Source: an uncultured Peptococcaceae bacterium
GTDB lineage: Bacteria; Bacillota; Dehalobacteriia; UBA4068; UBA4997
NCBI GenBank assembly: GCA_965149945.1
Contig: CBCTTQ010000007.1
Span: 1,645 to 65,644, forward strand
Length of the DNA stretch: 64,000 nt
Direction: 5' to 3'
Shown: one piece after another, positions 46,979-59,855 of the stretch
Position numbering within the stretch: position 1 is the stretch's first letter
How the letters are laid out: each line of letters opens with the position of its first letter
Program-made: the position numbers and the translations under genes
Notes under the pieces: generated by a model
The model's database searches: none
Told to the model about the DNA's origin: nothing
The model's input: the letters and a program-made list of their open reading frames with translations, nothing else

Positions 46979-47596
46979 ATGATCGTAACACTTTTTGGGG
47001 TTGAAGTAAACCTGTTGGCCCAGCTGTTCGGGCTGATCATGTTGATTTTCATTGTCATATCCTATAATGTCCATGACAATAAATATTTTATTTTCATGAC
47101 GGTGGCGTTTTCTTTCTGTGCCTTGGAATCTATCACCTTAGGCTCCATCACTAATTTCATCTGTTGCCTGGTTTCCATAGCGCGCAGTCTTTCGGTGCTA
47201 TACTACCGCAAGCGGGATCTGGACATTCCCAAATGGTTGCCGGTGGTTTTGATTGTGCCCATCTTTGCCATCGGAGTTTGGGCAGTCGTCACCGATAATC
47301 CATGGTACCAGCTGATGCCGCCGGTATTGATTATCACACTGACCATCTTGACTATGCAAAAGAGCATGTTTATCCTGAAAACGGGCAGTATCTTCATCGA
47401 AGCCGGCTTGATGGTGTTCAATTTCTTTATCGGCGCCTATGTAGGCGTCATTCGCCAAGCCATCGCGGTGATTTCTGTTATTGTCGGCTTAATCCGCTAC
47501 CATCGAGCGCTGCAAAAAGGAGAGGCTTTTGATTCTCTGCAACGCCTGAATCATCCGGAAAACGCCCCCGAAGAAGCGGAAAAACCCGCAACCTGA
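46979..47596 (+). CDS. small polytopic membrane protein (YgjV-like?)
   Basis: About 205 aa with 5-6 hydrophobic helices, a GAGGTG RBS, a TTGACA promoter element upstream and a terminator downstream. Confidence 0.5.
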   Translation: MIVTLFGVEVNLLAQLFGLIMLIFIVISYNVHDNKYFIFMTVAFSFCALESITLGSITNFICCLVSIARSLSVLYYRKRDLDIPKWLPVVLIVPIFAIGVWAVVTDNPWYQLMPPVLIITLTILTMQKSMFILKTGSIFIEAGLMVFNFFIGAYVGVIRQAIAVISVIVGLIRYHRALQKGEAFDSLQRLNHPENAPEEAEKPAT

Positions 47597-47624
47597 CAAA
47601 ACTATCAATCATAAAACACCAAAA

Positions 47625-47653
47625 GACAGACGGAATAATCCGCCTGTCTTTTT
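47625..47653 (+). terminator. rho-independent terminator
   Basis: agacagacgg...ccgcctgtct followed by TTTT. Confidence 0.65.
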
Positions 47654-48133
47654 GCATGAGGGAACTATAAAATTTGAAACATATCAAATCTCTTAAAACA
47701 TGTTGAGAAAGAAGGGGTTCCTTTCTTTTATTCCTCGATCATCCCAATACCCAGGAACATATGATTTTCATCACACTTCACACAAGCGCACCATCTCCCA
47801 TGCTATGATGCGCGATGTTTTATCCGTCCTGATAAAAGGCGTTTTAAAACGTCGCTTTCAAAAGAACCGGATTCGCACACCACCTCCAAGCGACCAACAT
47901 CTCCGCTGTTTCCATATTTTTATGAAAGGAAAGAGACAACAAGCGGTCTGTCTTATTTATAGGAGTTTGCCGCTTCAGATGCTGCTCCTAAGAGATTCGT
48001 ATCAAAGGCAGTCAAGCATTCCTCGTCAAACTATTTTTTTAACCGAAACAATCCCGACTCCAATTTGATTTTACTCCCTTTGCATCGCCTTCAAGTATAG
48101 TGAAATTCGACAGATTCCCTTTACAGAAAGTCG

Positions 48134-48694
48134 TCAGGCGGAAGGCGTGCCGTATTTTTCCACCATAACTTTCACCGTGGGCAAAAGATCCTCGGCCATA
48201 TAGAAATCTCCCATACGGTCTGTTCCTTGATAAACATTTTCCACAGTACCTTTTGTGATTTTTCCGTAATCTATGTCTTCATACAGCGAAATAACACAGT
48301 CATCATTGAAATGAACATAGTAATAGCACATTCCTTCGTAACGGTGTTCATCGGGAACCTTCTCCCAAGAAGCGAAATCCACACTGTCGATGAGGGTCTG
48401 AATATCCGTCGGATCGGTAATGGTCGCTACACAAACCCGACTTTCCCCATCTATGAAAATCTGTACCTCCTGCGATTCCAATGGATAATTTTCTTCCAGA
48501 TATTGCTCGAGGGGAACTCCGTTGACCACCGTTTGGATATCCATCGGTTCTGCCGCCTGAGCGCCTTGTTCATTTTGCTCCTCCGTTTGGCCGGACTGCC
48601 CGTTGGGCTCCGCGGCGGGTTCCTTTGTCTCACCGCAAGCGGTGAGTCCCAAAGCAAAAATGGCAATGCAAAGAATCAACAATATTTTTTTCAT
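48134..48694 (-). CDS. lipoprotein, tandem paralog 1 (unknown function)
   Basis: MKKILLILCIAIFALGLTAC lipobox, conserved YYYVHFNDDC core, start at the MKK ATG. Confidence 0.75.
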   Translation of the reverse strand: MKKILLILCIAIFALGLTACGETKEPAAEPNGQSGQTEEQNEQGAQAAEPMDIQTVVNGVPLEQYLEENYPLESQEVQIFIDGESRVCVATITDPTDIQTLIDSVDFASWEKVPDEHRYEGMCYYYVHFNDDCVISLYEDIDYGKITKGTVENVYQGTDRMGDFYMAEDLLPTVKVMVEKYGTPSA

Positions 48695-48773
48695 AGGTAT
48701 CAATCTCCTTTCCTGATCAGATCATTCCAAAAATAACACGGGCACGAAATCAGGCTTTACCGTTATGTTGCCG

Positions 48774-49316
48774 TCAGGTGGAAGGCGTGCCGTATTTTTC
48801 CACCATAGCTTTCACCGTGGGCAAAAGATCCTCGGCCATATAAAAGTCTCCCATGTGAAAATGTCCTTCAGCACTTAAATCATGAATACTATCTACGGTT
48901 CCTTTTTCGATCCCACCATAAGAATCATCCTCATACAGCGAAACAGTACAATTGTCATTGAAATGCACATAATAATAGCAAATTCCATCGTACCCTTGTT
49001 GCGGAAGTACCTTCTCCCAGGAAGAGAAATCCACACTGCTGATGAGAGTCTGAATATCCGCCGGATCGGTAATGGTCGCCACATGAATAAGCTCCATTGA
49101 TTGATTAACAAAAATCTCTATTTTTTTCGATTCCAGCGGATAGTTTTCCGCCAGATACTGTTCGAGAGGAACGCCTTCCACGGTTTGCGTGTCCTCTTGC
49201 GTATTCTCCTGGACAGGCTGCCCGTTGGGCTCCGCGGCGGGTTCCTTTGTCTCACCGCAAGCGGTGAGACCCAAGGCGAAAATGGCAATGCAAAGAATCA
49301 GCAATGTTTTTTTCAT
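48774..49316 (-). CDS. lipoprotein, tandem paralog 2
   Basis: MKKTLLILCIAIFALGLTAC lipobox; N-terminus identical to paralog 1. Confidence 0.75.
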   Translation of the reverse strand: MKKTLLILCIAIFALGLTACGETKEPAAEPNGQPVQENTQEDTQTVEGVPLEQYLAENYPLESKKIEIFVNQSMELIHVATITDPADIQTLISSVDFSSWEKVLPQQGYDGICYYYVHFNDNCTVSLYEDDSYGGIEKGTVDSIHDLSAEGHFHMGDFYMAEDLLPTVKAMVEKYGTPST

Positions 49317-49375
49317 AGGTATCATCTCCCTTTATCCATTCTCGTATCGTTTCTTTACGAAAAATCAAACTTTGC

Positions 49376-49930
49376 TCACGCGGAGGGAGAACCGTATTTT
49401 TCCACCATTGCTTGTACCGTGGTCAAAAAGCCTTCCGGCATATTGAAGCATCCTTCTCTATCCGTGATCATATCATCTGTTACATATGAAGCATTTTCCA
49501 AAGAGGCCCTGCCGATATCCCCGTAAGCAATATCATCATACATGCCAATGATACAATCATCATTAAAATGCACATAATAATAATTTATGCCCGCATACCC
49601 ATCAGCAGGATCCGCAAGTCCTTCCCAGGAAGCAAAATCTACACTGTCGATGAGCGCTTGAATATCTATCGGGTCAGTAACGGTTACCACAGGTTTATAG
49701 AATAAGTCTCCGTCTATATTAGCAAAAATGATCACCTTCTTCGATTCCAACGGATAAGTTTCCGCGAGATACTGATCGAGGGGGACGCCGTTGATCGTCT
49801 GGGTGCCTGTCGGTTCTTCTGCCTCTGTCGCTTGTTCATTGGGATCCGCGACGGGTTCTTCTGTTTCTCCGCAAGCGGCAAGTCCCAACGCCAAAACAAC
49901 CAGCAGCAGAGCCATCCATATCTTTTTCAT
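49376..49930 (-). CDS. lipoprotein, tandem paralog 3
   Basis: MKKIWMALLLVVLALGLAAC lipobox; more diverged. Confidence 0.75.
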   Translation of the reverse strand: MKKIWMALLLVVLALGLAACGETEEPVADPNEQATEAEEPTGTQTINGVPLDQYLAETYPLESKKVIIFANIDGDLFYKPVVTVTDPIDIQALIDSVDFASWEGLADPADGYAGINYYYVHFNDDCIIGMYDDIAYGDIGRASLENASYVTDDMITDREGCFNMPEGFLTTVQAMVEKYGSPSA

Positions 49931-49978
49931 GGTTATCATCTCCCTTTATCCATTCTCGTATCGTTTCTTTACAAAAAA

Positions 49979-51454
49979 TCAAACTTTACCGTTATAGGTT
50001 TTATCACCAAGACAATACAGCGGTAAATCTAATGTGCTAAGAGAATTTCTGGTATTCACAGCAGCCGTATAAAGATAACGACTTCCATTTACCTGCGGCC
50101 AAAACTCTCTGTTGTATTGGCGCATATTCGTAACTTTCACTGTATTATAGAAACCCATGAAAAATCTATCCTGACTATTAGAAGTAATATTAAACGCACT
50201 TGCCCATGCAGGCGTACCAGTTTCACAAGCGCTTAAAAATACAAACTTCCAATTACCGTTGTAACCATCAATCGTTGTCCGATTCAAACTCCAAACGATA
50301 TCGTCTTTAGTATCTTTCGCACATATCACATCATTATCACCGTGTCCATAAAACATAAATCCATAAGCGTCGCTCTTCTTCAAAAAGCTCATAATTGTGT
50401 TTTTCAGTGAGTATTCCTTTGATGTTGTTCCTGTAGCAGAATATCCTAATCTCTTAAACGCGGCTTTTGCCAAGGACACATTACTGGAACTTTCGCTCAT
50501 ATAACCATCGCCATATGCTCCAGCAGAAAGCATCATGACATTACCTCCAATTACCTCACCAGTTACAGCATCCACATACACAAACTGATTACCGCCATTC
50601 AAAGAAATATTATAAGCCAATCTTACAAAATCTGCGGGTTCATAGGGACCGCCTTCTCTCCAGTAATAATTGGGCTGCACATAACATAATTCTGCTCCAT
50701 CCACAGTTGCTTGCAATTTTTCAATCACTGGCTGAGCTGCGACAATAGCTTCTTCTTTGCTGATTTCAGCGGTTGTAGTATTCGCTTCCAAATCAAATGT
50801 ACTCAAAAACGCCAAAGAAGCATCTTTTCTAGCAATGGTAATATTCACACCATCACATTCATTCACTAAACCATTTTCTAAAACTTGTCGATATGCCAAT
50901 AACCAATAATCAACAGTTACCTTTTCAGATTTAACTAATTTGTATTCCCCTTCCAGTTCCAACATTTCTAAAGTTTGTTCACCGGTAGCAATATATTGCT
51001 CTTCGCTTGTTGAAAAAGTTTCTTCCCATGTAGGCGCAAGCAAATCAGCATCAGCATGATAGATATCAACAATTTGATTATTGGAATCAACAGAAATATA
51101 AGATTCATCATCAATGATGTATTTGGTATAAATCTCATTGGTATAACCTATTACATCTTTCATTGTTTCTGCTTTTTTCACATTGTCTACAGAGATTCCC
51201 AATGTTTCCAAATCATCTTGGGTATCCTTATCCAAAACCGTTGTACTAATTCCAGATACTGTCGCACTTTTCAAAAGTATATCTTGTATATCACCATTAT
51301 TTTGTTCTGATACCGGAATAGGCTTCGCTTGCGCGATGACACTTTCCTTTTGCCCTACCACATCGGATGTTTCCGCGAAAGCACTCACGCCGGAAGTCAT
51401 GAATACCGCAAAAACTAAAAACAACGCCAACACTTTGGACACATTCTTTTTCAT
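49979..51454 (-). CDS. secreted caspase-fold cysteine peptidase-like protein (clan CD; CHAT/C11-like) with a PepSY-like N-terminal region
   Basis: Signal peptide MKKNVSKVLALFLVFAVFMTSGVSAFA. A putative His-Cys dyad sits in beta-strand contexts FMFYGHGDN and KFVFLSACETG, spaced about 40 aa apart. Confidence 0.55.
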   Translation of the reverse strand: MKKNVSKVLALFLVFAVFMTSGVSAFAETSDVVGQKESVIAQAKPIPVSEQNNGDIQDILLKSATVSGISTTVLDKDTQDDLETLGISVDNVKKAETMKDVIGYTNEIYTKYIIDDESYISVDSNNQIVDIYHADADLLAPTWEETFSTSEEQYIATGEQTLEMLELEGEYKLVKSEKVTVDYWLLAYRQVLENGLVNECDGVNITIARKDASLAFLSTFDLEANTTTAEISKEEAIVAAQPVIEKLQATVDGAELCYVQPNYYWREGGPYEPADFVRLAYNISLNGGNQFVYVDAVTGEVIGGNVMMLSAGAYGDGYMSESSSNVSLAKAAFKRLGYSATGTTSKEYSLKNTIMSFLKKSDAYGFMFYGHGDNDVICAKDTKDDIVWSLNRTTIDGYNGNWKFVFLSACETGTPAWASAFNITSNSQDRFFMGFYNTVKVTNMRQYNREFWPQVNGSRYLYTAAVNTRNSLSTLDLPLYCLGDKTYNGKV

Positions 51455-51684
51455 AATTATTCACACTCTCCTTACTTTTATTAGTGCCGTCCCGCCCACC
51501 CATCATTTTTTATAGCAAAAATTCTCAAGGGAATCTTGTGATCAAGCCTTCTTCCTGCTTTTTTTCATCACATTTTTAAGACCGCGTCCCCTTCGCCGCG
51601 GTTTTTATTCTCCATTTGGATGAACAAAATTTCCCCCGTATTTATCCAAATAGGATAAATGGCTCACACACTATACCCGCGTCA

Positions 51685-52095
51685 TCATTTTGTCGCATAC
51701 GCATATCTCATAATTTCATCGGTGCCGCCGGCTCCGTAAACGTATACCATGGCTTTCAAACGATAGCTGCCACTGCTAACCGGAGAATAGGTATCCACGA
51801 ACGACAAGGAACCTACACCGGTCATACGGCTCCAAGTTTTGATCGGATTGCCGTAGGCGCCGTTAGATTGCTTCTTCTGCAGATATACCGTGGACACAAT
51901 GCTTTCATTGGATTTCTGGGTGTTCACATACAATTTGCACTTCGCGGTAGAACCACTAATCGACAACATTGGCGTCACCTTCGCGTCAGAAGTCCAGCTG
52001 GGCACAATGTCCACCGTCGGCGCCGCCATGGCCACCGTCCCAAAAGCAAAAATCAGGCACAAGGCCAGCGCCAACACCGCGGGTTTCTTTTTCAT
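51685..52095 (-). CDS. small secreted protein (signal peptide plus a beta-rich domain of about 110 aa), unknown function
   Basis: MKKKPAVLALALCLIFAFGTVAMA; the ATG has RBS AAAGGAGGTG. Confidence 0.65.
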   Translation of the reverse strand: MKKKPAVLALALCLIFAFGTVAMAAPTVDIVPSWTSDAKVTPMLSISGSTAKCKLYVNTQKSNESIVSTVYLQKKQSNGAYGNPIKTWSRMTGVGSLSFVDTYSPVSSGSYRLKAMVYVYGAGGTDEIMRYAYATK

Positions 52096-52281
52096 CGGTT
52101 TCACCTCCTTTCTGTTTCATCCGAAGAGGAGTTTTTCCCCCTCTATTTATATAACACAATTGAGACAGCCAAAATCTGACAAAATTCACAAAAATTTTTT
52201 TTATTTTTTTCAAATTTTTTCCATTTCTTTTGCTGTTTCCTGTTCCCCTCTTTTTGCAGGTGTTTTTCCCTTATCCGCACA

Positions 52282-52320
52282 GAAAAAGTGACCGAACCAT
52301 TTCGATTCGGTCACTTTTTC
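52282..52320. terminator. bidirectional terminator after the anti-sigma gene
   Basis: gtgaccgaa...ttcggtcac flanked by an A-run and a T-run. Confidence 0.7.
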
Positions 52321-52338
52321 AAAAGAATCTATTACACA

Positions 52339-53052
52339 TTATTTCCGCAAACAAATTCCATCGGCAATCCGCAGCAATTCTTCCAACGGCAAAATGCCTT
52401 TGATCGCGAAGAAGTACTTGCCGTCCGCACTGGTCCAAATCAAATCGGAAGACCAACCCACATCTATGGGCTTATAGTAAATCGCTTCTTCGCCGGAGAA
52501 CAATTCCACCATACACTTTTCTCGATGTTCATTATCTACGCTATATGAGAAGTTATGACTGGCAAGCGCGATGTCTATCGTTAAAAATTGCCCTTCAGCA
52601 TTTCTAAACTCCCACACATTAATTATTTCTTCTGACCAATCCTCTGAAAGAACAAATGATTGTTCATAGGCTTCCGGAATATACTGAAATTCGACATCTG
52701 GCAATGTGTCATTTGTTTCGTTATAAAACTGATATGTCACATGGTCCGAAAGCCACTCTTCCAGCAAATTGCCGGCAATGGTCCGCGTCTGGGGAATAGC
52801 AAAAAGTGTCCCCGCCAAAATCGCCAGCACCACCACCGCGACCAAGGCATATTGGCGAATTCGCCGAGGAATGCTCCTCCCCTGGCGTTTGGCATATCCC
52901 AAAGGATCCGCCAGCATGCGGTCAAATCTCCGCCGCCATTTCTTACTCGGTTCCGCGTCATCCTCCCGCACATCCCGATAACGCTCTGCCGCCGCCAGCA
53001 ACAACGCGTCATGTAAACGAAGTTCCAATTGCGATTCGTTCATGGACATCAA
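52339..53052 (-). CDS. anti-sigma factor (cytoplasmic N-terminus, single TM, extracytoplasmic DUF4367-like domain)
   Basis: Translationally coupled to the upstream sigma gene through an ATGA overlap; TM at ALVAVVVLAILAGTLFAI. Confidence 0.7.
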   Translation of the reverse strand: MMSMNESQLELRLHDALLLAAAERYRDVREDDAEPSKKWRRRFDRMLADPLGYAKRQGRSIPRRIRQYALVAVVVLAILAGTLFAIPQTRTIAGNLLEEWLSDHVTYQFYNETNDTLPDVEFQYIPEAYEQSFVLSEDWSEEIINVWEFRNAEGQFLTIDIALASHNFSYSVDNEHREKCMVELFSGEEAIYYKPIDVGWSSDLIWTSADGKYFFAIKGILPLEELLRIADGICLRK

Positions 53053-53567
53053 TCCTCTTCTTGCAATTTTTTCATCAGCAGCTTCCGCGCCCTGGACAAA
53101 CGCTGCAAAGCGTTGTCACAAGTAATATCCCGCAACACGGCGATTTCCTTCGCGCGATATCCGTAAAGATAATACAATTCCAAAACATCCCGATATTTTT
53201 CGGGCAAGGCGTTGATGGCAGCCACCAGCTCTGTGGTTTCTTCCCCTTGTTCCGCGGCAATCCCGTCAAACAAATGATTATCTCCCACCGGAAAAGAACG
53301 CCGTTCTTTTTTCAAAATATTCAGCGCGGTATTGCGTGTGACCACCAAAATCCAGCCCCATTGCGCGGATTCATCCAACGCCAAAAATTGAGAAAAATGA
53401 TAAATCACCTGCAAAAACGCATCGTGTACCGCTTCATCCGCCAGCTCGGAAGATCCCAAAATTTCTTTGGCAACGCGGTACATTTTGCCACGATGGCGAT
53501 CGTAAATCCCCTTAAACAGGATTCGATCTCCGGGGGCTTCGACCTGCTCAAAATAAAACGCTAACAT
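53049..53567 (-). CDS. RNA polymerase ECF-type sigma-70 factor
   Basis: Region 2 (DRILFKGIYDRHRGKMYRVAKEIL...AVHDAFLQV) and region 4 (LPEKYRDVLELYYLYGYRAKEIA); start at the internal Met with RBS GAGAGGA. Confidence 0.85.
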   Translation of the reverse strand: MLAFYFEQVEAPGDRILFKGIYDRHRGKMYRVAKEILGSSELADEAVHDAFLQVIYHFSQFLALDESAQWGWILVVTRNTALNILKKERRSFPVGDNHLFDGIAAEQGEETTELVAAINALPEKYRDVLELYYLYGYRAKEIAVLRDITCDNALQRLSRARKLLMKKLQEED

Positions 53568-53785
53568 GCCAATCCTCTCATATCCGCAAAACGCGCGACC
53601 CTCCAAACCGATCGCCTTTAACAAAAAAGCTTTATCCATCGCGTTCATAAGCTATTGCCATTATAGCAAGTTTTTCTATCCTTGCCTAGTCATTTGCAAA
53701 ATTTTATCAATATTAGGAAAAGCCATTTTCTGATTTTACTCCGAGAAAATCTTCTTTTTATGCGTTTTTTTTATAAGATATGCAA

Positions 53786-53821
53786 AACAAAAAGGCCGTG
53801 ATCTTTTTCACGGTCTTTTTA
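53786..53821. terminator. bidirectional terminator after the isochorismatase-family gene
   Basis: ggccgtga...tcacggtc flanked by an A-run and a T-run. Confidence 0.65.
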
Positions 53822-53866
53822 TTAAACCATAAAATACCTGCTAAACGCAAATACTAAACCATCCTG

Positions 53867-54457
53867 TCAATCCAGCGTCTCCAATGTCACCACGCGCGCC
53901 CCCAACAAGCTTTGCATATGATTCATGGCAAAAGCTTTGTTTTCCACCGAATCACTGACAGTCGCGTCATCGGCAATGGTCACCCGATAGCCCCGATTAT
54001 AGGCGTCAATGGCAGTATGCAATACGCAAATATGCGTACACACACCACCCAGCACCACCTCTGTCACGCCGCGGGCGCGCAGCCAAACATCCAACTGTGT
54101 TCCCGCAAAAGCGGAAAATCGTACCTTACGAAAATACACCGTTTCAAAAGGATGGCTTTCATGGATCGCGGTCCATTTCTCTTTCACTTTTCCGTACAAT
54201 TCCGCACCCCAGCAACCCTGTACATTATGACGAGGGAACAATGCCGTTTCCGGATGATAAGGATCACGCGCACCGTCCTTTGTCTCCTCGTGAGAATCGT
54301 TACATACCACCACAAAATTTCCCCGTGCCAAAAACCACTCAAAATAAGCACAGGCAACCGATTCAATGGCCTGCGCCGGCAGACCGCAAGACAGCACACC
54401 GCTATCCGCAATCAAATCATTGCTGAAATCAATTAAAATAAACGCTTTTTTCTCCAT
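53867..54457 (-). CDS. isochorismatase-family cysteine hydrolase
   Basis: 196 aa: FILIDFSNDL...VVLGGVCTHICV. Confidence 0.8.
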   Translation of the reverse strand: MEKKAFILIDFSNDLIADSGVLSCGLPAQAIESVACAYFEWFLARGNFVVVCNDSHEETKDGARDPYHPETALFPRHNVQGCWGAELYGKVKEKWTAIHESHPFETVYFRKVRFSAFAGTQLDVWLRARGVTEVVLGGVCTHICVLHTAIDAYNRGYRVTIADDATVSDSVENKAFAMNHMQSLLGARVVTLETLD

Positions 54458-55339
54458 TGTTTTTCCTCCTTCCCAAAGAATTGTTCAATTATATTTTACA
54501 GAATTCAGTAATAATAAACAATAGGTTGTGTTCATTTTCTTTTTTCTCTACAAAAATATACGGAATACATTATACCATTAGAACACCCGCAAGATTTTCC
54601 CCACAGATCTTTTCGCCACAATTCATCGGTGTCAAAAAATTCAATTTTCATAGATTTAACAAGTTCGATATAGCCCTTTCGTATTCTCCGTAAGGAAACA
54701 TTCCACTATTCCTCTTCAGGTATAGGAAGAGATGATATTTTATAGTTCCTATCATGCAGACTTAGACCGGAACATCATTCCCGGCATTTCTTTCCTATCT
54801 TAAAGCCCTCACTGATTGACTGTTTTGATAGCGTTTTCTTGCTTTCGCAAGCTACATAATATTTGCGTTCCCTATGATCAGGACGCTCCAATTGCACAAG
54901 GATATTCTCTCAATTGCAGACAAGACCATCTAAGGCCGCTTTTCGCTTTTCCACAGCATAGCTATTTTATTTCCTCTATGCGCATACTTCCGATAATCAA
55001 CAGGCAAATACTCTTGTCGATTACTAAAAATTCATTGGCATTGAACTCGTATTTTGAGACGCAACCATTCAATCGAGCAACTGATACCGACTAATGAAAA
55101 CGAATAGGGTTGAGAAAAACAGAGCCCTTTTTATTTTCTTCCTAATACAAAACGAGACACCGAAAAAATTTTTCTCGATTAGCGAATAGAAAGTGTTATT
55201 TGTTTCACGCCGAATACGATATCTAATTCATTTAAAAAGAAGGAAATATTTATAATCAAAAATTCCGAAAAAAATCTAGAATTTTTTAACTCCGTATCTG
55301 TATGGTAGCCAGCCAAGCTTTTCCGACAATACACCAAAC

Positions 55340-55386
55340 AAAAAATGCAAAAAAAGACCGAACATCGTAAAAAGATGTTCGGTCTT
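55340..55386 (-). terminator. terminator of the tRNA-Met/tRNA-Glu operon
   Basis: agaccgaacatc...gatgttcggtct hairpin with a T-run on the minus strand. Confidence 0.75.
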
Positions 55387-55392
55387 AGCAGT

Positions 55393-55469
55393 TGGTGACG
55401 CGTAGGGGATTCGAACCCCTGAATGCCAGCGTGAAAGGCTGGTGAGTTCAGCCGCTTCTCCAACGCGCC
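55393..55469 (-). tRNA. trnE: tRNA-Glu (anticodon UUC)
   Basis: Hand-folded: acceptor GGCGCGT/ACGCGTC, anticodon stem CCAGC/GCUGG with loop CUUUCAC, T-arm AGGGG-TTCGAAT-CCCCT, CCA encoded. Confidence 0.85.
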
Positions 55470-55472
55470 ATA

Positions 55473-55549
55473 TGGTAGCGGTGACTGGACTTGAACCAGT
55501 GACACCCCGGGTATGAACCGAGTGCTCTAACCAACTGGGCTACACCGCC
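55473..55549 (-). tRNA. tRNA-Met (anticodon CAU; elongator Met or lysidine-modified Ile2 cannot be distinguished)
   Basis: GGCGGTGTAGCCCAGTTGGTTAGAGCACTCGGTTCATACCCGGG...CACCGCTACCA; G1-C72 is paired, so it is not an initiator. Confidence 0.85.
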
Positions 55550-55628
55550 ATGAACAGACTGCCTTATTATAATACCTTATTTAATCCCAAAAGTCAAGTG
55601 ATTTTCTACATTTTCTCGTATTTTTTTC

Positions 55629-56069
55629 CTACTTCCCCAGCATCAGACGTCCTCCTGCCACCAACAGCACCAAACCGAGGATTTGCAACCAAGAAAAGCT
55701 GACTCTTTCCATACCGAAAAGCCCCAGCCAATCGATTATCATCGCTGTCCCCAGCTGCCCCGCGATGATGGCGGTTGTCGCCACCGATGCCCCCAATTTT
55801 GGAATGGAAGCCATCACCCCGTAGATAATCCCCACATTAATAATTCCTCCCAAATATCCATACCAAGGGACTTCTCTCCATTTACTAAAATCACCGTCCC
55901 CCACGCCGATTACCAACACCAAAACAAAAATCACAAAGGTAGCAATAGCATGTACAACAAAATTCCCCTCCCAGGGACCGATTACTTTTCCCATCAAACC
56001 GTTCAACGTACCTTGTACCGCCATAAGCAAACCAGCCACAAAAGGCAAGCTCAACATCAACCAATTCAT
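55629..56069 (-). CDS. DMT-superfamily transporter (YdcZ/DUF606-like)
   Basis: 146 aa with 4-5 TM helices. Confidence 0.65.
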   Translation of the reverse strand: MNWLMLSLPFVAGLLMAVQGTLNGLMGKVIGPWEGNFVVHAIATFVIFVLVLVIGVGDGDFSKWREVPWYGYLGGIINVGIIYGVMASIPKLGASVATTAIIAGQLGTAMIIDWLGLFGMERVSFSWLQILGLVLLVAGGRLMLGK

Positions 56070-56117: not shown

Positions 56118-57290
56118 TCAGTCTTTTTTTTCCAAAAATCCACTACGCGAAGGCAAAGCAAGGATTTTTTCATAAAAGGCCAGTGTGGCTTCAGCAGTTT
56201 TTTGCCAATCAAAACGAGCGCTCCACGCAAGCCCTTTCTGTCCCATCTGTCGCAACAGTTTCGGATCATTCAGCGTCTCCACCAAAACTCTTGTCATCGA
56301 ATCGGTATCCATGGCGTCAAAATAGCAAGCCGCATCACCGCCTGTTTCTCGGAGAGAAGAATTATCCGCCACCAATACAGGGCAACCACAAGCCATCGCC
56401 TCTAAAACAGGCAAACCGAATCCTTCATAAAAAGAAGGATATACCAAGGCGGATGCACCGCCATAAAAGTACGGCAACAAATTCCCAGGTACAAACCCCG
56501 GAAACACCACCCGTTCACCAATTCCCAAGGATGTTGCCAATTCTGTCAAAGCAGCGGTTTCTCTTCCGCAACGTCCGGGACAAACCAGCAGATACGGCGT
56601 GTGCCATTCTGATTGTGCCCGAGCAAAAGCCGTCAACAAACCGGACAAATTTTTCCGACGGCTAAAACCACCCACATACAGCAAATAGGCTCCGTCAATG
56701 CCGTATTGACGCCGTAACACCCCTTTGCAAGTTTCAGAAGCAGTCAACGCGTAAATCGGCTCTGCCGCCTCATAAATAACGGCAATTCGATCTTCCGGGT
56801 ATTTAAAAAACCGCAGAATATCCCTTTTGGTATGGTTGGAGACCGCAATAATTCCGTCGCTTTTGCCTATAATGGCAGGCATATCATGCAGAAATTCTTT
56901 GCGATAACCCCGCCCCACCGATTCAGGATACACATAAGGAATCAAATCGTGAATAGTCACAATGGTGCGACAAGGCGCCGCCAAAGGCAGGCCAATGCCG
57001 TTTTGCGGCACATGATAGAGAACTGCTTGTTGTTCTTTCAGCCAACAAGGCAAAAATTCTTCTTCGCAATAACGGGGATTCTCCTGAATACGGGTACATC
57101 TCGCGCTATCCGTAAAATCCAAGTCCTCGTATTCCTGCCCCGGCAGAAAAAAAGAGATTTCCTCACCGACCAACTTCCGCAAATGTACTGCCAATTGATA
57201 GGTATAGGTGCCGATGCCCGTGCCGCGATAATGAATGGCGCCCCTGGCATCCAAGGCAATTCTGCCCCCCTTTATTCCGTTTTTTGCCAT
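56118..57290 (-). CDS. glycosyltransferase family 4 (GT-B)
   Basis: 390 aa with the C-terminal EGFGLPVLEAMACGCPV motif. Confidence 0.85.
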   Translation of the reverse strand: MAKNGIKGGRIALDARGAIHYRGTGIGTYTYQLAVHLRKLVGEEISFFLPGQEYEDLDFTDSARCTRIQENPRYCEEEFLPCWLKEQQAVLYHVPQNGIGLPLAAPCRTIVTIHDLIPYVYPESVGRGYRKEFLHDMPAIIGKSDGIIAVSNHTKRDILRFFKYPEDRIAVIYEAAEPIYALTASETCKGVLRRQYGIDGAYLLYVGGFSRRKNLSGLLTAFARAQSEWHTPYLLVCPGRCGRETAALTELATSLGIGERVVFPGFVPGNLLPYFYGGASALVYPSFYEGFGLPVLEAMACGCPVLVADNSSLRETGGDAACYFDAMDTDSMTRVLVETLNDPKLLRQMGQKGLAWSARFDWQKTAEATLAFYEKILALPSRSGFLEKKD

Positions 57291-58747
57291 CTGCGATCCC
57301 CTCCGTCAGCAACCTGTTCATAGCGCACAGTGAAATATAGTTCCTCTTGCAACACCTGCCTTTCCGTCATCGCAAGATGGACAACCAACCCCGAGGGACT
57401 AACCAAACAATCATCCCCTAAAATCGATATCGGTTGTTCTGCCGAAACAGCCGCCGCTTCCATTGCCATCATCTCCGAATCCGCCCTTTCGGCATCTTCG
57501 TCTGCCGCCAAACGTTGTGAAAACTCCGCCGAAACCTGTTCCAAATCAGGATGGCGCCGTTCTTCCTCTTTCGGCGGCAAAGCGGTTTCTTGGGCCGCAG
57601 ACAAGACATCCGTATTTTCAAAGGTTCCTTGCTCCGCTTCTTCCGCCGATAGGGATTCTCTCACATTACTCGCAGCCAAAACATCCTGCAATTCCGCTGC
57701 CGACGATCGGTCTTTTTCGGAAAGCTCCGCTGCCGTCGAGACAAAATCGCCTTCTCTTGCTTCTACTTTTTCCGATTGTAAATTTTTGCAAATTTCTTTT
57801 CCTGATTGTTCATGCGAAATGGATGAACCGGCCGCGACGGGAATCGGCTCATCCGGTTGAGGATCCAACAAAGGGCGATGTTCCTTTTCAGCTATTCGGT
57901 TCCGCTTTTGCAATTTCAACAAGGCATGGCTTTTTAATGTTCCCAAATCAGTCACAGGAGATTCTGTTTCTTCCGCTTCTGCCTTTGTCTCGGTATCCGC
58001 GCGCGCCTTCTCAGAAGTTGTTACAGAGTCGGCTTTTGCTGATCGAGCATCGGAATTAAAAGATTCTCCCCCTATTCCAACAGAAGAATCTTTTTCTTCG
58101 GCCTTACGCGCTGATTTCTCTGTTTCGCTTTGAGAAACCGCTTCGGCAACAGCATAACGCGCATCCTCTGCCTGCGGAGAAACAGACAATTCTTCCTTCT
58201 CCAATGACGGTGAAGAAGGTATTGAAACAACAGATTCTGTCGATCCATATTCAGCTAAAACACGCTGTACCTCAGAACTTGGCTGATACGAGGAAGAAGA
58301 TGGCGACTCAGATTTTTCTTTTGAAAAAGACATCGATTCAGCAACATTCGATTCGGCGATCGTGACAGGCGAAATCTCCTCACAATCCGAAATGATAATT
58401 TTGCCACTGAATTCCAACACATAGGGTGACAAAACTTCTAATTCCTCAGCTTGTAATTCCGGCCGCACCCATTTTTTCTCTGTTTGTCGCCAATCGTTCG
58501 ACAGTTCCAGCTTCAGAGGCAATGTAACTCTGGTTTTATATAATTTTTGACCTTCCAGCCCCCAATAGTCCAAATGCAAGGTATAACGGCCGCTCAGCCA
58601 AATCTGTCCGCCATGGCACAGCAAATCGTCAAAGAAAAGCTTTGACGAAAATCCTTCAATTTTTCGCACCCCCATGGCGTCTTTTGCTAAAAACACCGTT
58701 TGTTTCAAGGGAAGCGCAACTTTTTGTCGATCATGTCCAGTGGTCAT
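57272..58747 (-). CDS. hypothetical protein with a structured N-terminal domain and a long acidic Ser/Glu/Ala-rich low-complexity region
   Basis: 491 aa; residues ~130-430 are low complexity; 19-nt overlap with the downstream GT4 gene. Confidence 0.5.
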   Translation of the reverse strand: MTTGHDRQKVALPLKQTVFLAKDAMGVRKIEGFSSKLFFDDLLCHGGQIWLSGRYTLHLDYWGLEGQKLYKTRVTLPLKLELSNDWRQTEKKWVRPELQAEELEVLSPYVLEFSGKIIISDCEEISPVTIAESNVAESMSFSKEKSESPSSSSYQPSSEVQRVLAEYGSTESVVSIPSSPSLEKEELSVSPQAEDARYAVAEAVSQSETEKSARKAEEKDSSVGIGGESFNSDARSAKADSVTTSEKARADTETKAEAEETESPVTDLGTLKSHALLKLQKRNRIAEKEHRPLLDPQPDEPIPVAAGSSISHEQSGKEICKNLQSEKVEAREGDFVSTAAELSEKDRSSAAELQDVLAASNVRESLSAEEAEQGTFENTDVLSAAQETALPPKEEERRHPDLEQVSAEFSQRLAADEDAERADSEMMAMEAAAVSAEQPISILGDDCLVSPSGLVVHLAMTERQVLQEELYFTVRYEQVADGGDRRWQKTE

Positions 58748-58814: not shown

Positions 58815-59855
58815 TTATTTTTCTGATTCATCTACCATTTGCCAAATTTCCGAAAAGACTTTCCGGCAAACTTCATCCACCTCTTCAAAATTCATCGCCT
58901 TCACATAATATTCTTCCAGCTCATTATGGAGCCGTTTCGCCGCGGCAATACTGCCAACAGCCTCCTCCAAAAAATCCTCTTCCGGCAACACAGTTTCCTC
59001 CAAAGGCGCCAGCTCTACCAAAACATCCCCCGTGAAAGGTTCCAGCTCCGGTACTGAAGCATCCACCGCAGCAAAACCGATCTGCGGCAATACCACCATT
59101 TCATAACATTCCGGCGCCAAAGTACTATGATAAATATCAATATCATGACCACGCAAAACAGCGGCTTCTTCAATGCGTCGCAAAAAAGAATCAATATCAT
59201 AGCGATTCCCGCCGCGCAGTAAAAAACGCTTCTTCATACCGGCACAAAGAGACTGACGATATCCCACCCAGCCCCGCGGTGTAATAGCGGCAGCAAAAAA
59301 ATGAGAAACTTTTGCCAAATCCTCATGAAAAATTTCTCCGATCACATCGTTTGCCAAAGCCGTAACCCGTTTTTCTCCAACGGAATGGGTTTCCGCGTAA
59401 TCATCATAAGCATTGCGATAAGCAGCCAATTTTTCGTAAGCGTCTTGAAAATAGCAGGAAATTTCTTCCGTCAGACGAATAATTTCCTGTTTGTTTTCCC
59501 GTAACAAATCGCGGTTCCAATGATCACCCAAATTAATAATCTCATCCACTGCGCCTGGATAAACCGGATCGACCAAATGAGGTGAAGTCCCATCCACCAC
59601 CGCAATTTTTAAAGAAGGCACCACTACTCCATCCAAGGAATCATTGTCAGAAGAACACTGCCAAACTTCTACATCATAACCGCGTTCCGTCAGATTAAAG
59701 GCGATTTTTTTCATTAATGTACTTTTCCCTGTACCAGGACCCCCCTTCAATACAAAAATTCGTTCCATTCCTCTCAGACCATCAGCATAAAAAGAATAAA
59801 ACCCCGAAGGCGTATTGCTGCCCGGATATTTATGAATCATGCTTCCCTTTCTCAT
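58815..59855 (-). CDS. uncharacterized P-loop NTPase
   Basis: Walker A GGPGTGKST near the N-terminus, Walker B-like VVDGTSPH, GAGGTG RBS. Confidence 0.6.
   Translation of the reverse strand: MRKGSMIHKYPGSNTPSGFYSFYADGLRGMERIFVLKGGPGTGKSTLMKKIAFNLTERGYDVEVWQCSSDNDSLDGVVVPSLKIAVVDGTSPHLVDPVYPGAVDEIINLGDHWNRDLLRENKQEIIRLTEEISCYFQDAYEKLAAYRNAYDDYAETHSVGEKRVTALANDVIGEIFHEDLAKVSHFFAAAITPRGWVGYRQSLCAGMKKRFLLRGGNRYDIDSFLRRIEEAAVLRGHDIDIYHSTLAPECYEMVVLPQIGFAAVDASVPELEPFTGDVLVELAPLEETVLPEEDFLEEAVGSIAAAKRLHNELEEYYVKAMNFEEVDEVCRKVFSEIWQMVDESEK

Follow-up and report, generated by a model that had tools for sequence, protein, structure and literature searches.

A conserved ECF sigma/anti-sigma frame and a strain-variable cassette of a secreted caspase-fold protein and lipoproteins in an uncultured Peptococcaceae bacterium

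A stretch of 64,000 nt from an uncultured Peptococcaceae bacterium (GenBank assembly GCA_965149945.1, contig CBCTTQ010000007.1), referred to as a whole as the window, carries a locus of seven open reading frames (ORFs), all on the minus strand, which encode an extracytoplasmic function (ECF) sigma factor, an anti-sigma factor, a small secreted protein, a secreted 491-aa protein of caspase-like fold and three lipoproteins (Table 1). The best-supported description of the locus is one of two layers, a conserved frame of sigma, anti-sigma and small-protein genes and a strain-variable cassette of protease and lipoprotein genes. The cassette is tentatively read here, at a probability of about 0.45, as encoding a secreted zymogen of peptidase clan CD together with membrane-anchored lipoproteins that would be its inhibitors or immunity partners, set in the conserved ECF frame. 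Comparison loci and contigs are labelled L001 to L049.

The sigma, anti-sigma and small-protein frame

The sigma protein contains Sigma70_r2 and r4_2 and nothing else in Pfam, and it passes the cut-off of the ECF superfamily model TIGR02937 (65.7 bits, cut-off 42.9), in agreement with the original prediction, which had been made from the DNA sequence alone; no equivalog or subfamily cut-off was reached, and the label of envelope-stress sigma factor given in that prediction has no evidence behind it. The ORF can be extended to 53648, but homologues begin at MLAF (53567), behind GAGAGGA, and the orthologues in L004, L005 and L048 are 49, 44 and 76% identical, respectively. The stop codon of the sigma gene and the start codon of the anti-sigma gene share the sequence TGATG, closely preceded by GAAGAGGA, as expected from the proposed translational coupling of the two genes. 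Regarding the anti-sigma protein, a single hydrophobic span (approximately residues 66-86) was found together with a predicted cytoplasmic N-terminus and a DUF4367 (LolA-like) ectodomain (25.7 bits, gathering cut-off 22.1, E 1.6e-5), which agrees with the predicted single-pass topology with an extracytoplasmic domain; models of anti-sigma N-terminal domains gave no match to the 236-aa protein. DUF4367 has been described in connection with LolA-like proteins (bioRxiv 10.1101/2025.01.13.632879). The anti-sigma factor is 100% identical in L049, and the hairpin directly downstream of its gene, correctly predicted as a terminator, is kept in L048. The sigma-A-type promoter of the operon has a counterpart of sequence TTGCAA-17-TATAAT at the matching position in L004 and L005.

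The small protein has 136 residues if counted from MKKK and 139 from the GTG codon, and is beta-rich, with one conserved Cys and a signal peptide ending in AMA before AP, as the small signal-peptide protein without a named family that had been predicted. Only five homologues were detected among 5.8 billion proteins, with identities of 59-62% in L004 and L005, 79% in L048 and 99.3% in L049, and no Pfam or PDB match was obtained. The region upstream of its gene holds TTGTCA, TTGGCT-16-ATAAAT and a TAGAGGGG hairpin, and these blocks recur at equal spacing in L004, L005 and L048. A sigma-A-like promoter had been proposed here; a consensus scan for such a promoter before the small gene found none, and what stands of the proposal is that the block conserved in the four loci is readable as TTGGnn-16-TATAnn.

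Comparison of the regions 5' of the sigma, small-protein and peptidase genes in the same four loci revealed the conserved blocks TTGTCA, TTTTGG, GTGTT and TATATA-TAGAGGGG, and a repeated GTGTGRGC before the peptidase genes. An autoregulated ECF-type promoter was not detected at the sigma gene, which is preceded by the sigma-A-type promoter instead, and no regulon is claimed because the candidate pairings of TGTCA with GTGTT have variable spacing. The last ~170 nt before the peptidase start (window 51455-51625) are ~98% identical to L048 and only ~82% to L049, which makes them a mosaic produced by recombination; this stretch has a modest folding z-score (-2.2) and no Rfam match.

Table 1. Features of the locus in window coordinates.
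Feature	Position	Strand	Evidence or remark
Sigma-A-type promoter of the sigma/anti-sigma operon, TAGGCA-17-TATAAT with TG extension (TAGGCA-17-TGcTATAAT)	53660..53688	-	Consensus scan, 10/12 matches
ECF (group 4) sigma factor, 172 aa	53049..53567	-	Sigma70_r2 and r4_2; TIGR02937
Single-pass anti-sigma factor, 236 aa	52339..53049	-	DUF4367 ectodomain; start overlaps sigma stop
Intrinsic terminator of the sigma/anti-sigma operon	52282..52320	-	17-bp stem, -25.9 kcal/mol, z -7.7, U run
Conserved putative promoter/leader block 5' of the small-protein gene	52105..52200	-	Blocks and spacing common to four loci
Small secreted protein, 136 aa from MKKK	51685..52095	-	Signal peptide; part of the conserved frame, outside the variable cassette
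Hypervariable cassette: promoter region, peptidase gene, lipoprotein genes	48134..51613	-	Window vs L049
Secreted 491-aa zymogen-like protein	49979..51454	-	Caspase fold, His/Cys dyad
His371 codon, putative catalytic His (FYGHG motif after beta strand)	50342..50344	-	Conservation
Cys410 codon, putative catalytic Cys (FVFLSAC motif after beta strand)	50225..50227	-	Conservation; alignment to CHAT 8tl0_A
Lipoprotein A, 184 aa from MKKI	49376..49930	-	Lipobox LAAC
Lipoprotein B, paralogue of A and C	48774..49316	-	52% identical to A, 66% to C
Lipoprotein C, paralogue of A and B	48134..48694	-	54% identical to A, 66% to B
Terminator-like hairpin, 14-bp stem, ~480 nt 3' of lipoprotein C	47621..47652	-	May be shared with the convergent YgjV-like gene

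The caspase-fold protein and its lipoprotein neighbours

Four parts can be distinguished in the 491-aa protein: a signal peptide (residues 1-27), a YpeB-like PepSY-repeat prodomain (approximately 57-300), a linker (301-310) and a predicted catalytic domain of clan-CD fold (311-491). The prodomain, which makes up the N-terminal 60% of the protein and was not mentioned in the original prediction, gave a sub-threshold hidden Markov model (HMM) match to PepSY, and weak PepSY or DUF4901 matches were found across relatives. In an AlphaFold model built on the alignment of relatives, a caspase-type alpha/beta/alpha sandwich with a central sheet is seen, and the putative dyad of FMFYGH371G and FVFLSAC410, 39 residues apart, follows strands E365-369 and E404-408; His-Gly and Ala-Cys, each directly after a buried beta strand, are the hallmark of clan CD. 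H371 and C410 are invariant in 10 relatives (alignment A5), and His371, Gly372 and Cys410 are kept in at least 90% of 47 diverse relatives at a mean column identity of ~20%; the lack of such a dyad had been named in advance as a possible refutation of the peptidase assignment. The profile of the 47 members matched the CHAT chain 8tl0_A (E 3.6e-4) in an alignment that includes the Cys strand, and PDB sequence searches with the single sequence or small profiles returned noise only (myomesin, KAT2 and caspase-1 at E ~1).

The caspase/CHAT-type fold that had been predicted is thus backed by the model, the dyad and the profile match, and since the match to a CHAT chain is the sole link to any of the named peptidase families, the protein is assigned to clan CD only and to no named family. 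The putative catalytic domain represents an uncatalogued and unusually small (~180 aa) clan-CD family, and the conservation of its residues suggests cysteine peptidases. Among 1.84 billion representatives, its profile found 321 clusters (50% identity level), 150 of them at E <= 1e-10; the 491-aa protein itself has just 15 relatives (clusters) among 5.8 billion proteins, and no relative was found in viral contigs. In line with the expectation that the exported proteins lie beyond named families, scans with Pfam and NCBIfam placed the peptidase domain, the small protein and the lipoproteins in no family.

Relatives of the protein occur in two forms. In those of ~430-530 aa the domain is C-terminal and preceded by ~250-370 further residues, and those of ~200-250 aa consist of a signal peptide and the catalytic domain alone. 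In the two split forms that were examined (L044/L045 and L046), the short gene is preceded by one for a secreted protein of 303-304 aa, with which it overlaps by 4 nt; homology of this preceding protein to the fused family covers residues 5-306 of the latter (E 2.4e-26), and the split point lies exactly at the low-confidence linker of the fused form, after TGEVIGGD. As the PepSY module and the catalytic domain are fused in some lineages and encoded by coupled separate genes in others, there is good evidence from these sequences that the two probably act together. A role of the module in latency or folding is suggested by analogy, as PepSY/FTP propeptides serve secreted M4/M36 metalloproteases in latency or folding during export. 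The ectodomain of the anti-sigma factor in L044 is, judging by 33% identity over 222 aa (E 6e-25) and the same terminal motif TTGE[IV]IGGD, a paralogue of the secreted PepSY partner of the protease.

A divergent gene for a response regulator (233-238 aa, output domain of Spo0A_C type) adjoins the split gene pair in two separate lineages (L044:3173-3874, L045:1414-2115 and L046:1239-1955). Broken peptidase copies were also observed: a second copy in L004 lies in three ORFs (L004:8199-9725), the L048 gene is divided into ORFs of 249 and 241 aa (L048:2993-4475) and the L041 gene has a stop within the prodomain. These may be either decaying alleles or assembly errors.

Regarding the lipoproteins, the three tandem paralogues that had been predicted are 52-66% identical to one another, with ~165 mature residues and an L-[AT]-A-C lipobox each; LGLAAC or LGLTAC lies at residues 18-23 (counted from MITM/MIPM) in all three, and at least 90% of the family keep the Cys. 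The family comprises 14 clusters among 5.8 billion proteins. Lipoprotein A has an acidic linker followed by an alpha/beta globular domain of ~130 aa. The spacers before A (49931-49978) and B (49326-49375) share 36 nt (GTAAAGAAACGATACGAGAATGGATAAAGGGAGATG), so this spacer belongs to the duplication unit, the first ~37 residues of B and C are near-identical, and the database alleles P0018 and P0021 resemble mosaics of A, B and C. The shared spacer, the shared N-termini and the mosaic alleles point to ongoing duplication and gene conversion.

The original prediction was also open to refutation if lipoproteins and peptidase never co-occurred in other genomes. A lipoprotein gene adjoins the peptidase gene in about 9 of 11 lineages, and in six of them a lipoprotein homologous to those of the window is encoded within 0-300 nt. 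Its position varies, from downstream in the window (three genes), L001 (a Bacillota metagenome-assembled genome, 26 nt) and L041 (32 nt), through an overlap with the peptidase stop in L004, to upstream in L006 and in the human-gut lineage L010-L039, which has the opposite order with a distance of 15 nt. Lipoproteins of 179 and 178 aa are encoded downstream in L007 and in Clostridium perfringens plasmids such as pCPF4969, respectively, without detectable homology to those of the window, and in L042 the first 53 aa of a downstream lipoprotein are ended by the contig edge. Profile comparison did not show the L007 and pCPF4969 lipoproteins, or a 162-aa membrane-anchored protein of L046, to be homologous to the lipoproteins of the window. 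Taken together, the conserved dyad and the co-occurrence speak in favour of a real partnership of lipoprotein and protease, which the sequences suggest.

A 42-aa mini-lipoprotein (L005:8747-8875 and L004:9722-9850) has a mature part of ~18 residues, of which three or four are Cys (CDNDNYDPCGTDYVHYDCG); its gene overlaps the stop codon of one peptidase allele and stands there instead of that for the 160-190-aa lipoprotein. Plasmids of the pCPF4969 type encode a peptidase homologue of 477 aa together with the lipoprotein, and on pCPF4969 itself (L047, NC_007772.1, 1-3047) the pair lies a few kb from a lantibiotic-immunity ATP-binding cassette transporter and a two-component system; this region is rich in competition-related genes.

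Genomic contexts and variability between strains

The order of sigma, DUF4367 anti-sigma, small protein and secreted cargo was found in five places, namely the window, L004, L005, L048 and L049. The frame proteins are 40-62% identical to those of the window in L004 and L005, which have different flanking genes, 73-79% in L048 and 99-100% in L049. The split protease of L044 stands downstream of a different ECF pair, so that ECF anti-sigma factors of two unrelated kinds, DUF4367 and PepSY, accompany the protease family. Profile-profile comparison of the anti-sigma and small proteins with the peptidase and lipoprotein families revealed shared signal peptides and nothing else. Control of the cassette by the sigma factor is suggested by conserved synteny only. 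L004 (9993-11881) and L005 (5177-6759) additionally encode a second family of secreted proteins of 467-481 aa without Pfam or PDB match, which share 78-85% identity with the L005 peptidase over 27 residues of signal peptide; a small ORF for a membrane-anchored product (142 or 51 aa) comes after each gene, in what looks like a second pair of effector and partner under the same frame.

The window, L049 and L048 represent the same chromosomal site, between isochorismatase and YgjV-like genes, and comparison of the three revealed a variability between strains that the original prediction had missed, as it had the split-gene forms. Judged by the flanks, L049 is essentially the same strain as the window, with nucleotide identities of 99.8% for the 3' end of the sigma gene and the anti-sigma gene, 100% for the next spacer, 99.3% for the small gene and 99.3% for the 536 nt after the last lipoprotein gene. 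Between these near-identical flanks, the peptidases are only 49.7% identical in amino acids and 64% in nucleotides, and L049 has two lipoproteins where the window has three, at best 81% and 73% identical. Identity is perfect to ~51613, 72 nt past the stop of the small gene, then collapses, and resumes from 48133 downstream. L048 is more distant, with 73-85% identity of the flanking proteins and ~80% of the flanking genes in DNA, yet the 230 nt before its peptidase gene are 92% identical to the window and the first 45 codons are identical, while the rest of the protein is 45-48% identical; the L048 peptidase allele is 86.6% identical to that of L049.

In a rough Nei-Gojobori estimate on single pairs, the ratio of nonsynonymous to synonymous divergence (dN/dS) was 1.02 (dN 0.125, dS 0.122) for the lipoprotein adjoining the replaced peptidase, 0.2-0.42 for other lipoprotein pairs and 0.12-0.20 for flanking genes. 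Mobile contexts were found elsewhere, with ParA, ribbon-helix-helix and helix-turn-helix genes, with a resolvase on mobilizable or conjugative-type C. perfringens plasmids and with an integrase in L004. The locus thus shows an effector-type allele swap behind a conserved 5' part with linked variable genes of protective type, as polymorphic systems do, and the swap, the tandem diverged genes of protective type, the change in copy number and the mobility are together the population signature of effector and immunity loci. The original suggestion of an immunity module rather than a housekeeping function fits this replacement of the cassette at strain level.

In the surroundings of the locus, an Rfam scan of 47000-55700 detected no RNA family besides two tRNAs, which are tRNA-Glu(ttc) and tRNA-Met(cat) genes at 55393-55549, ~1.8 kb 5' of the sigma gene; neither an integrase nor any other indication of an island was found in the window, and a PADLOC scan of the locus proteins gave no match to a defence system. 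The ~480 nt between lipoprotein C and the downstream hairpin (47653-48133) have no convincing ORF and are 99.3% identical in L049. A 491-aa ORF without Pfam match at 57272-58747 adjoins a gene for a 346-aa protein (58815-59855) with weak matches to STAND/NACHT-type NTPases.

Interpretation of the cassette

In the proposed mechanism, a precursor protease would be exported through Sec, with one to three membrane-anchored lipoproteins from the same cassette. The PepSY module would keep the enzyme latent or folded during export, like the propeptides of M4/M36 proteases, the catalytic domain may be released at the linker, and active enzyme on the membrane surface of the producing cell itself would be bound and neutralised by the lipoproteins. 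Protease and lipoprotein would in that case be a secreted effector and a surface immunity protein, used against neighbouring bacteria or on surface proteins, and the frame of sigma, anti-sigma and small protein may set when the cassette is expressed.

Several observations weigh against this reading. Regarding the enzyme, the structural model is of medium confidence (mean predicted local distance difference test score, pLDDT, 72.9), the HMM check, proposed originally for CHAT and C11, gave no match of the 491-aa protein to Pfam CHAT (PF12770), C11, C13, C14 or C25 at E up to 1, no Pfam peptidase model matched the 47 relatives at E up to 0.01, and NCBIfam yielded no peptidase model either; the reach of a Sec-released protease of a monoderm cell would also be limited to surface targets. 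Regarding the lipoproteins, comparison of their fold with solved structures returned only uncharacterised structural-genomics proteins and no staphostatin, potempin, chagasin or other inhibitor, L005 has the Cys-rich mini-lipoprotein in their place and the split forms (L044/L045 and L046) have no lipoprotein at all. Lipoprotein A is 81% identical to its L049 counterpart while the peptidases are only 50% identical, and strict one-to-one specificity is not evident, because the lipoproteins differ far less than the peptidases between strains. Regarding regulation, a strong terminator closes the sigma operon before the small gene, -10 boxes resembling TATAAT precede this gene and the peptidase gene, no ECF-type promoter (AAC at -35, CGT-like at -10) with fixed spacing was detected before either gene, and most lineages carry the peptidase/lipoprotein pair without a sigma factor; sigma control of the exported genes, as originally proposed, is not borne out by these findings.

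Among the alternatives, the lipoproteins could be docking sites, activators or substrates rather than inhibitors, retaining or activating the enzyme or being shed by it, much as GerS acts for CwlD and YpeB for SleB, where the partner retains or activates the enzyme. The cassette would then serve nutrient acquisition, surface-protein maturation or host interaction, and pressure from host antibodies or phages would explain its variability. Long acidic lipoprotein linkers that the protease could cut, the lesser divergence of the lipoproteins between strains and the action of gingipains and clostripain-like C11 peptidases on host or surface proteins are consistent with such a role, which is nonetheless considered doubtful, as paralogue arrays, change in copy number, dN/dS near 1 and mobile carriage are more typical of immunity genes, and the stop/start overlap or 15-40 nt spacing suggests stoichiometric co-production, like that of protease-inhibitor pairs. 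If the C-terminal domain were a pseudo-enzyme, a caspase-fold module that binds without catalysis, the missing peptidase HMM match and the domain size, unusually small for clan CD, would be accounted for, yet this is very improbable: pseudo-enzymes usually lose catalytic residues, and here His and Cys stand in canonical positions, invariant or nearly so across 47 relatives at ~20% identity.

Two further explanations concern the ECF genes. The protease could be part of the signalling pathway and not just its output: by binding or cutting ectodomains of PepSY or other type, it would serve as site-1 protease or sensed ligand of the neighbouring anti-sigma factor, and the lipoproteins would tune this at the membrane. 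A competitor's protease might even be perceived in this way, when it cut the anti-sigma ectodomain of the cell. ECF anti-sigma factors are generally released by regulated proteolysis initiated at site 1, the L044 ectodomain is paralogous to the PepSY partner and the protease family stands beside two unrelated anti-sigma types, all of which would suit this explanation; it is nevertheless rated improbable, as neither the prodomain nor the lipoproteins nor the small protein could be related to the DUF4367 ectodomain of the window, the pair mostly lacks a nearby sigma/anti-sigma pair across lineages, and a specific pairing of protease and anti-sigma factor as enzyme and substrate is hard to reconcile with an anti-sigma factor that is 100% conserved while the protease is swapped for a 50%-identical allele. 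Conversely, adjacency to the sigma gene could be incidental, the cassette having been inserted 3' of an unrelated ECF operon with housekeeping-type promoters of its own. The terminator after the anti-sigma gene, the -10 elements, the start of the variable cassette only 72 nt past the small gene and the occurrence of the pair elsewhere without a sigma factor would all be explained in this way; the conserved gene order in the window, L048 and L049, and at 40-62% identity with different flanks in L004 and L005, and the second, unrelated ECF pair accompanying the split form in L044 make a chance association unlikely.

A role in spore germination, suggested by the likeness to YpeB, was rejected in view of the cleavable signal peptide, the protease domain and the lack of a SleB-like neighbour, and an anti-phage CHAT/ECF system like DdvS/DdvA was rejected as the caspase-fold protein is secreted and separate from the anti-sigma factor.

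Regarding known systems, the dyad after hydrophobic strands is the same in clan CD, which includes gingipains (C25), CHAT, legumain (C13), caspases and metacaspases (C14) and clostripain (C11), and the 491-aa protein is, like RgpB, secreted as a precursor with an N-terminal prodomain. It differs in the ~180-aa domain without match to a clan-CD model of Pfam or NCBIfam and in the PepSY-repeat prodomain, which to our knowledge is not known for clan CD. As in PepSY/FTP propeptides and YpeB, the module is N-terminal of a secreted hydrolase, with weak PepSY/DUF4901 matches, but here the partner is a putative cysteine peptidase, and the module also occurs as a separate secreted protein or as an anti-sigma ectodomain. 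The staphopain-staphostatin, Bfp-Bfi and KLIKK-potempin pairs likewise have a secreted protease gene directly beside a small partner gene; we know of no report of allelic cassette replacement or tandem paralogue arrays for the staphostatin, Bfi or potempin pairs. The C10 proteases Bfp of Bacteroides fragilis are co-transcribed with staphostatin-like inhibitors (Bfi), some pairs lying on mobile elements (PMC2873492), and potempins of Tannerella forsythia inhibit the co-produced KLIKK proteases (bioRxiv 10.1101/2025.09.05.674453). These pairs belong to other protease clans, the fold of the window lipoproteins shows no match to staphostatins or another solved inhibitor, and the window lipoproteins are putative inhibitors only.

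The cassette also resembles the Tox-Caspase polymorphic toxins in its conserved 5' end (leader and 45 codons) followed by a swapped, divergent mature protein, and in the tandem genes of protective type and variable copy number adjoining the peptidase gene. Caspase-like domains are among the polymorphic toxin heads, with Sec export listed as one way in which caspase-domain toxins are delivered (Zhang et al. 2012, PMC3482391); lipoprotein immunity was recorded for only one family, Imm65, in the same survey. Here, in contrast, the whole mature protein is replaced and no RHS, LXG or other trafficking domain is present, and toxicity would follow only from the analogy. With RseA-RseB and DdvA, a CHAT anti-sigma factor (PDB 8rot), the locus shares the coupled ECF pair, the LolA-like ectodomain and the link to a caspase fold, but here the caspase-fold protein is secreted and separate instead of being the anti-sigma factor itself, and there is no PADLOC match. 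A broader and more speculative proposal, rated improbable as a whole, is a Sec-dependent polymorphic protease/immunity system of Gram-positive gut anaerobes, in which the caspase-fold protease would be secreted as a weapon and lipoprotein arrays would protect the producer. A PepSY decoy, copied from the prodomain and shown as the anti-sigma ectodomain of some lineages, would be cut or captured by a protease of the cell itself or of a competitor and would thereby switch on sigma-driven expression.

Known interbacterial weapons in monoderm gut bacteria are mostly bacteriocins and toxins of the type VII secretion system. If the preferred reading of the cassette as secreted clan-CD zymogen and lipoprotein immunity partner is true, a secreted protease with lipoprotein immunity would constitute a novel type of contact-independent antagonism in such bacteria, and a minimal family of caspase-fold peptidases with its own PepSY-type prodomain would be added to those known; the 321 clusters of this family include copies on C. 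perfringens enterotoxin plasmids. The swap of the cassette between otherwise identical strains provides natural allele swaps as a handle on specificity. An anti-sigma ectodomain resembling the prodomain offers a conceivable route by which ECF systems might perceive proteases, and this bears on the many clostridial anti-sigma factors of DUF4367 or PepSY type.

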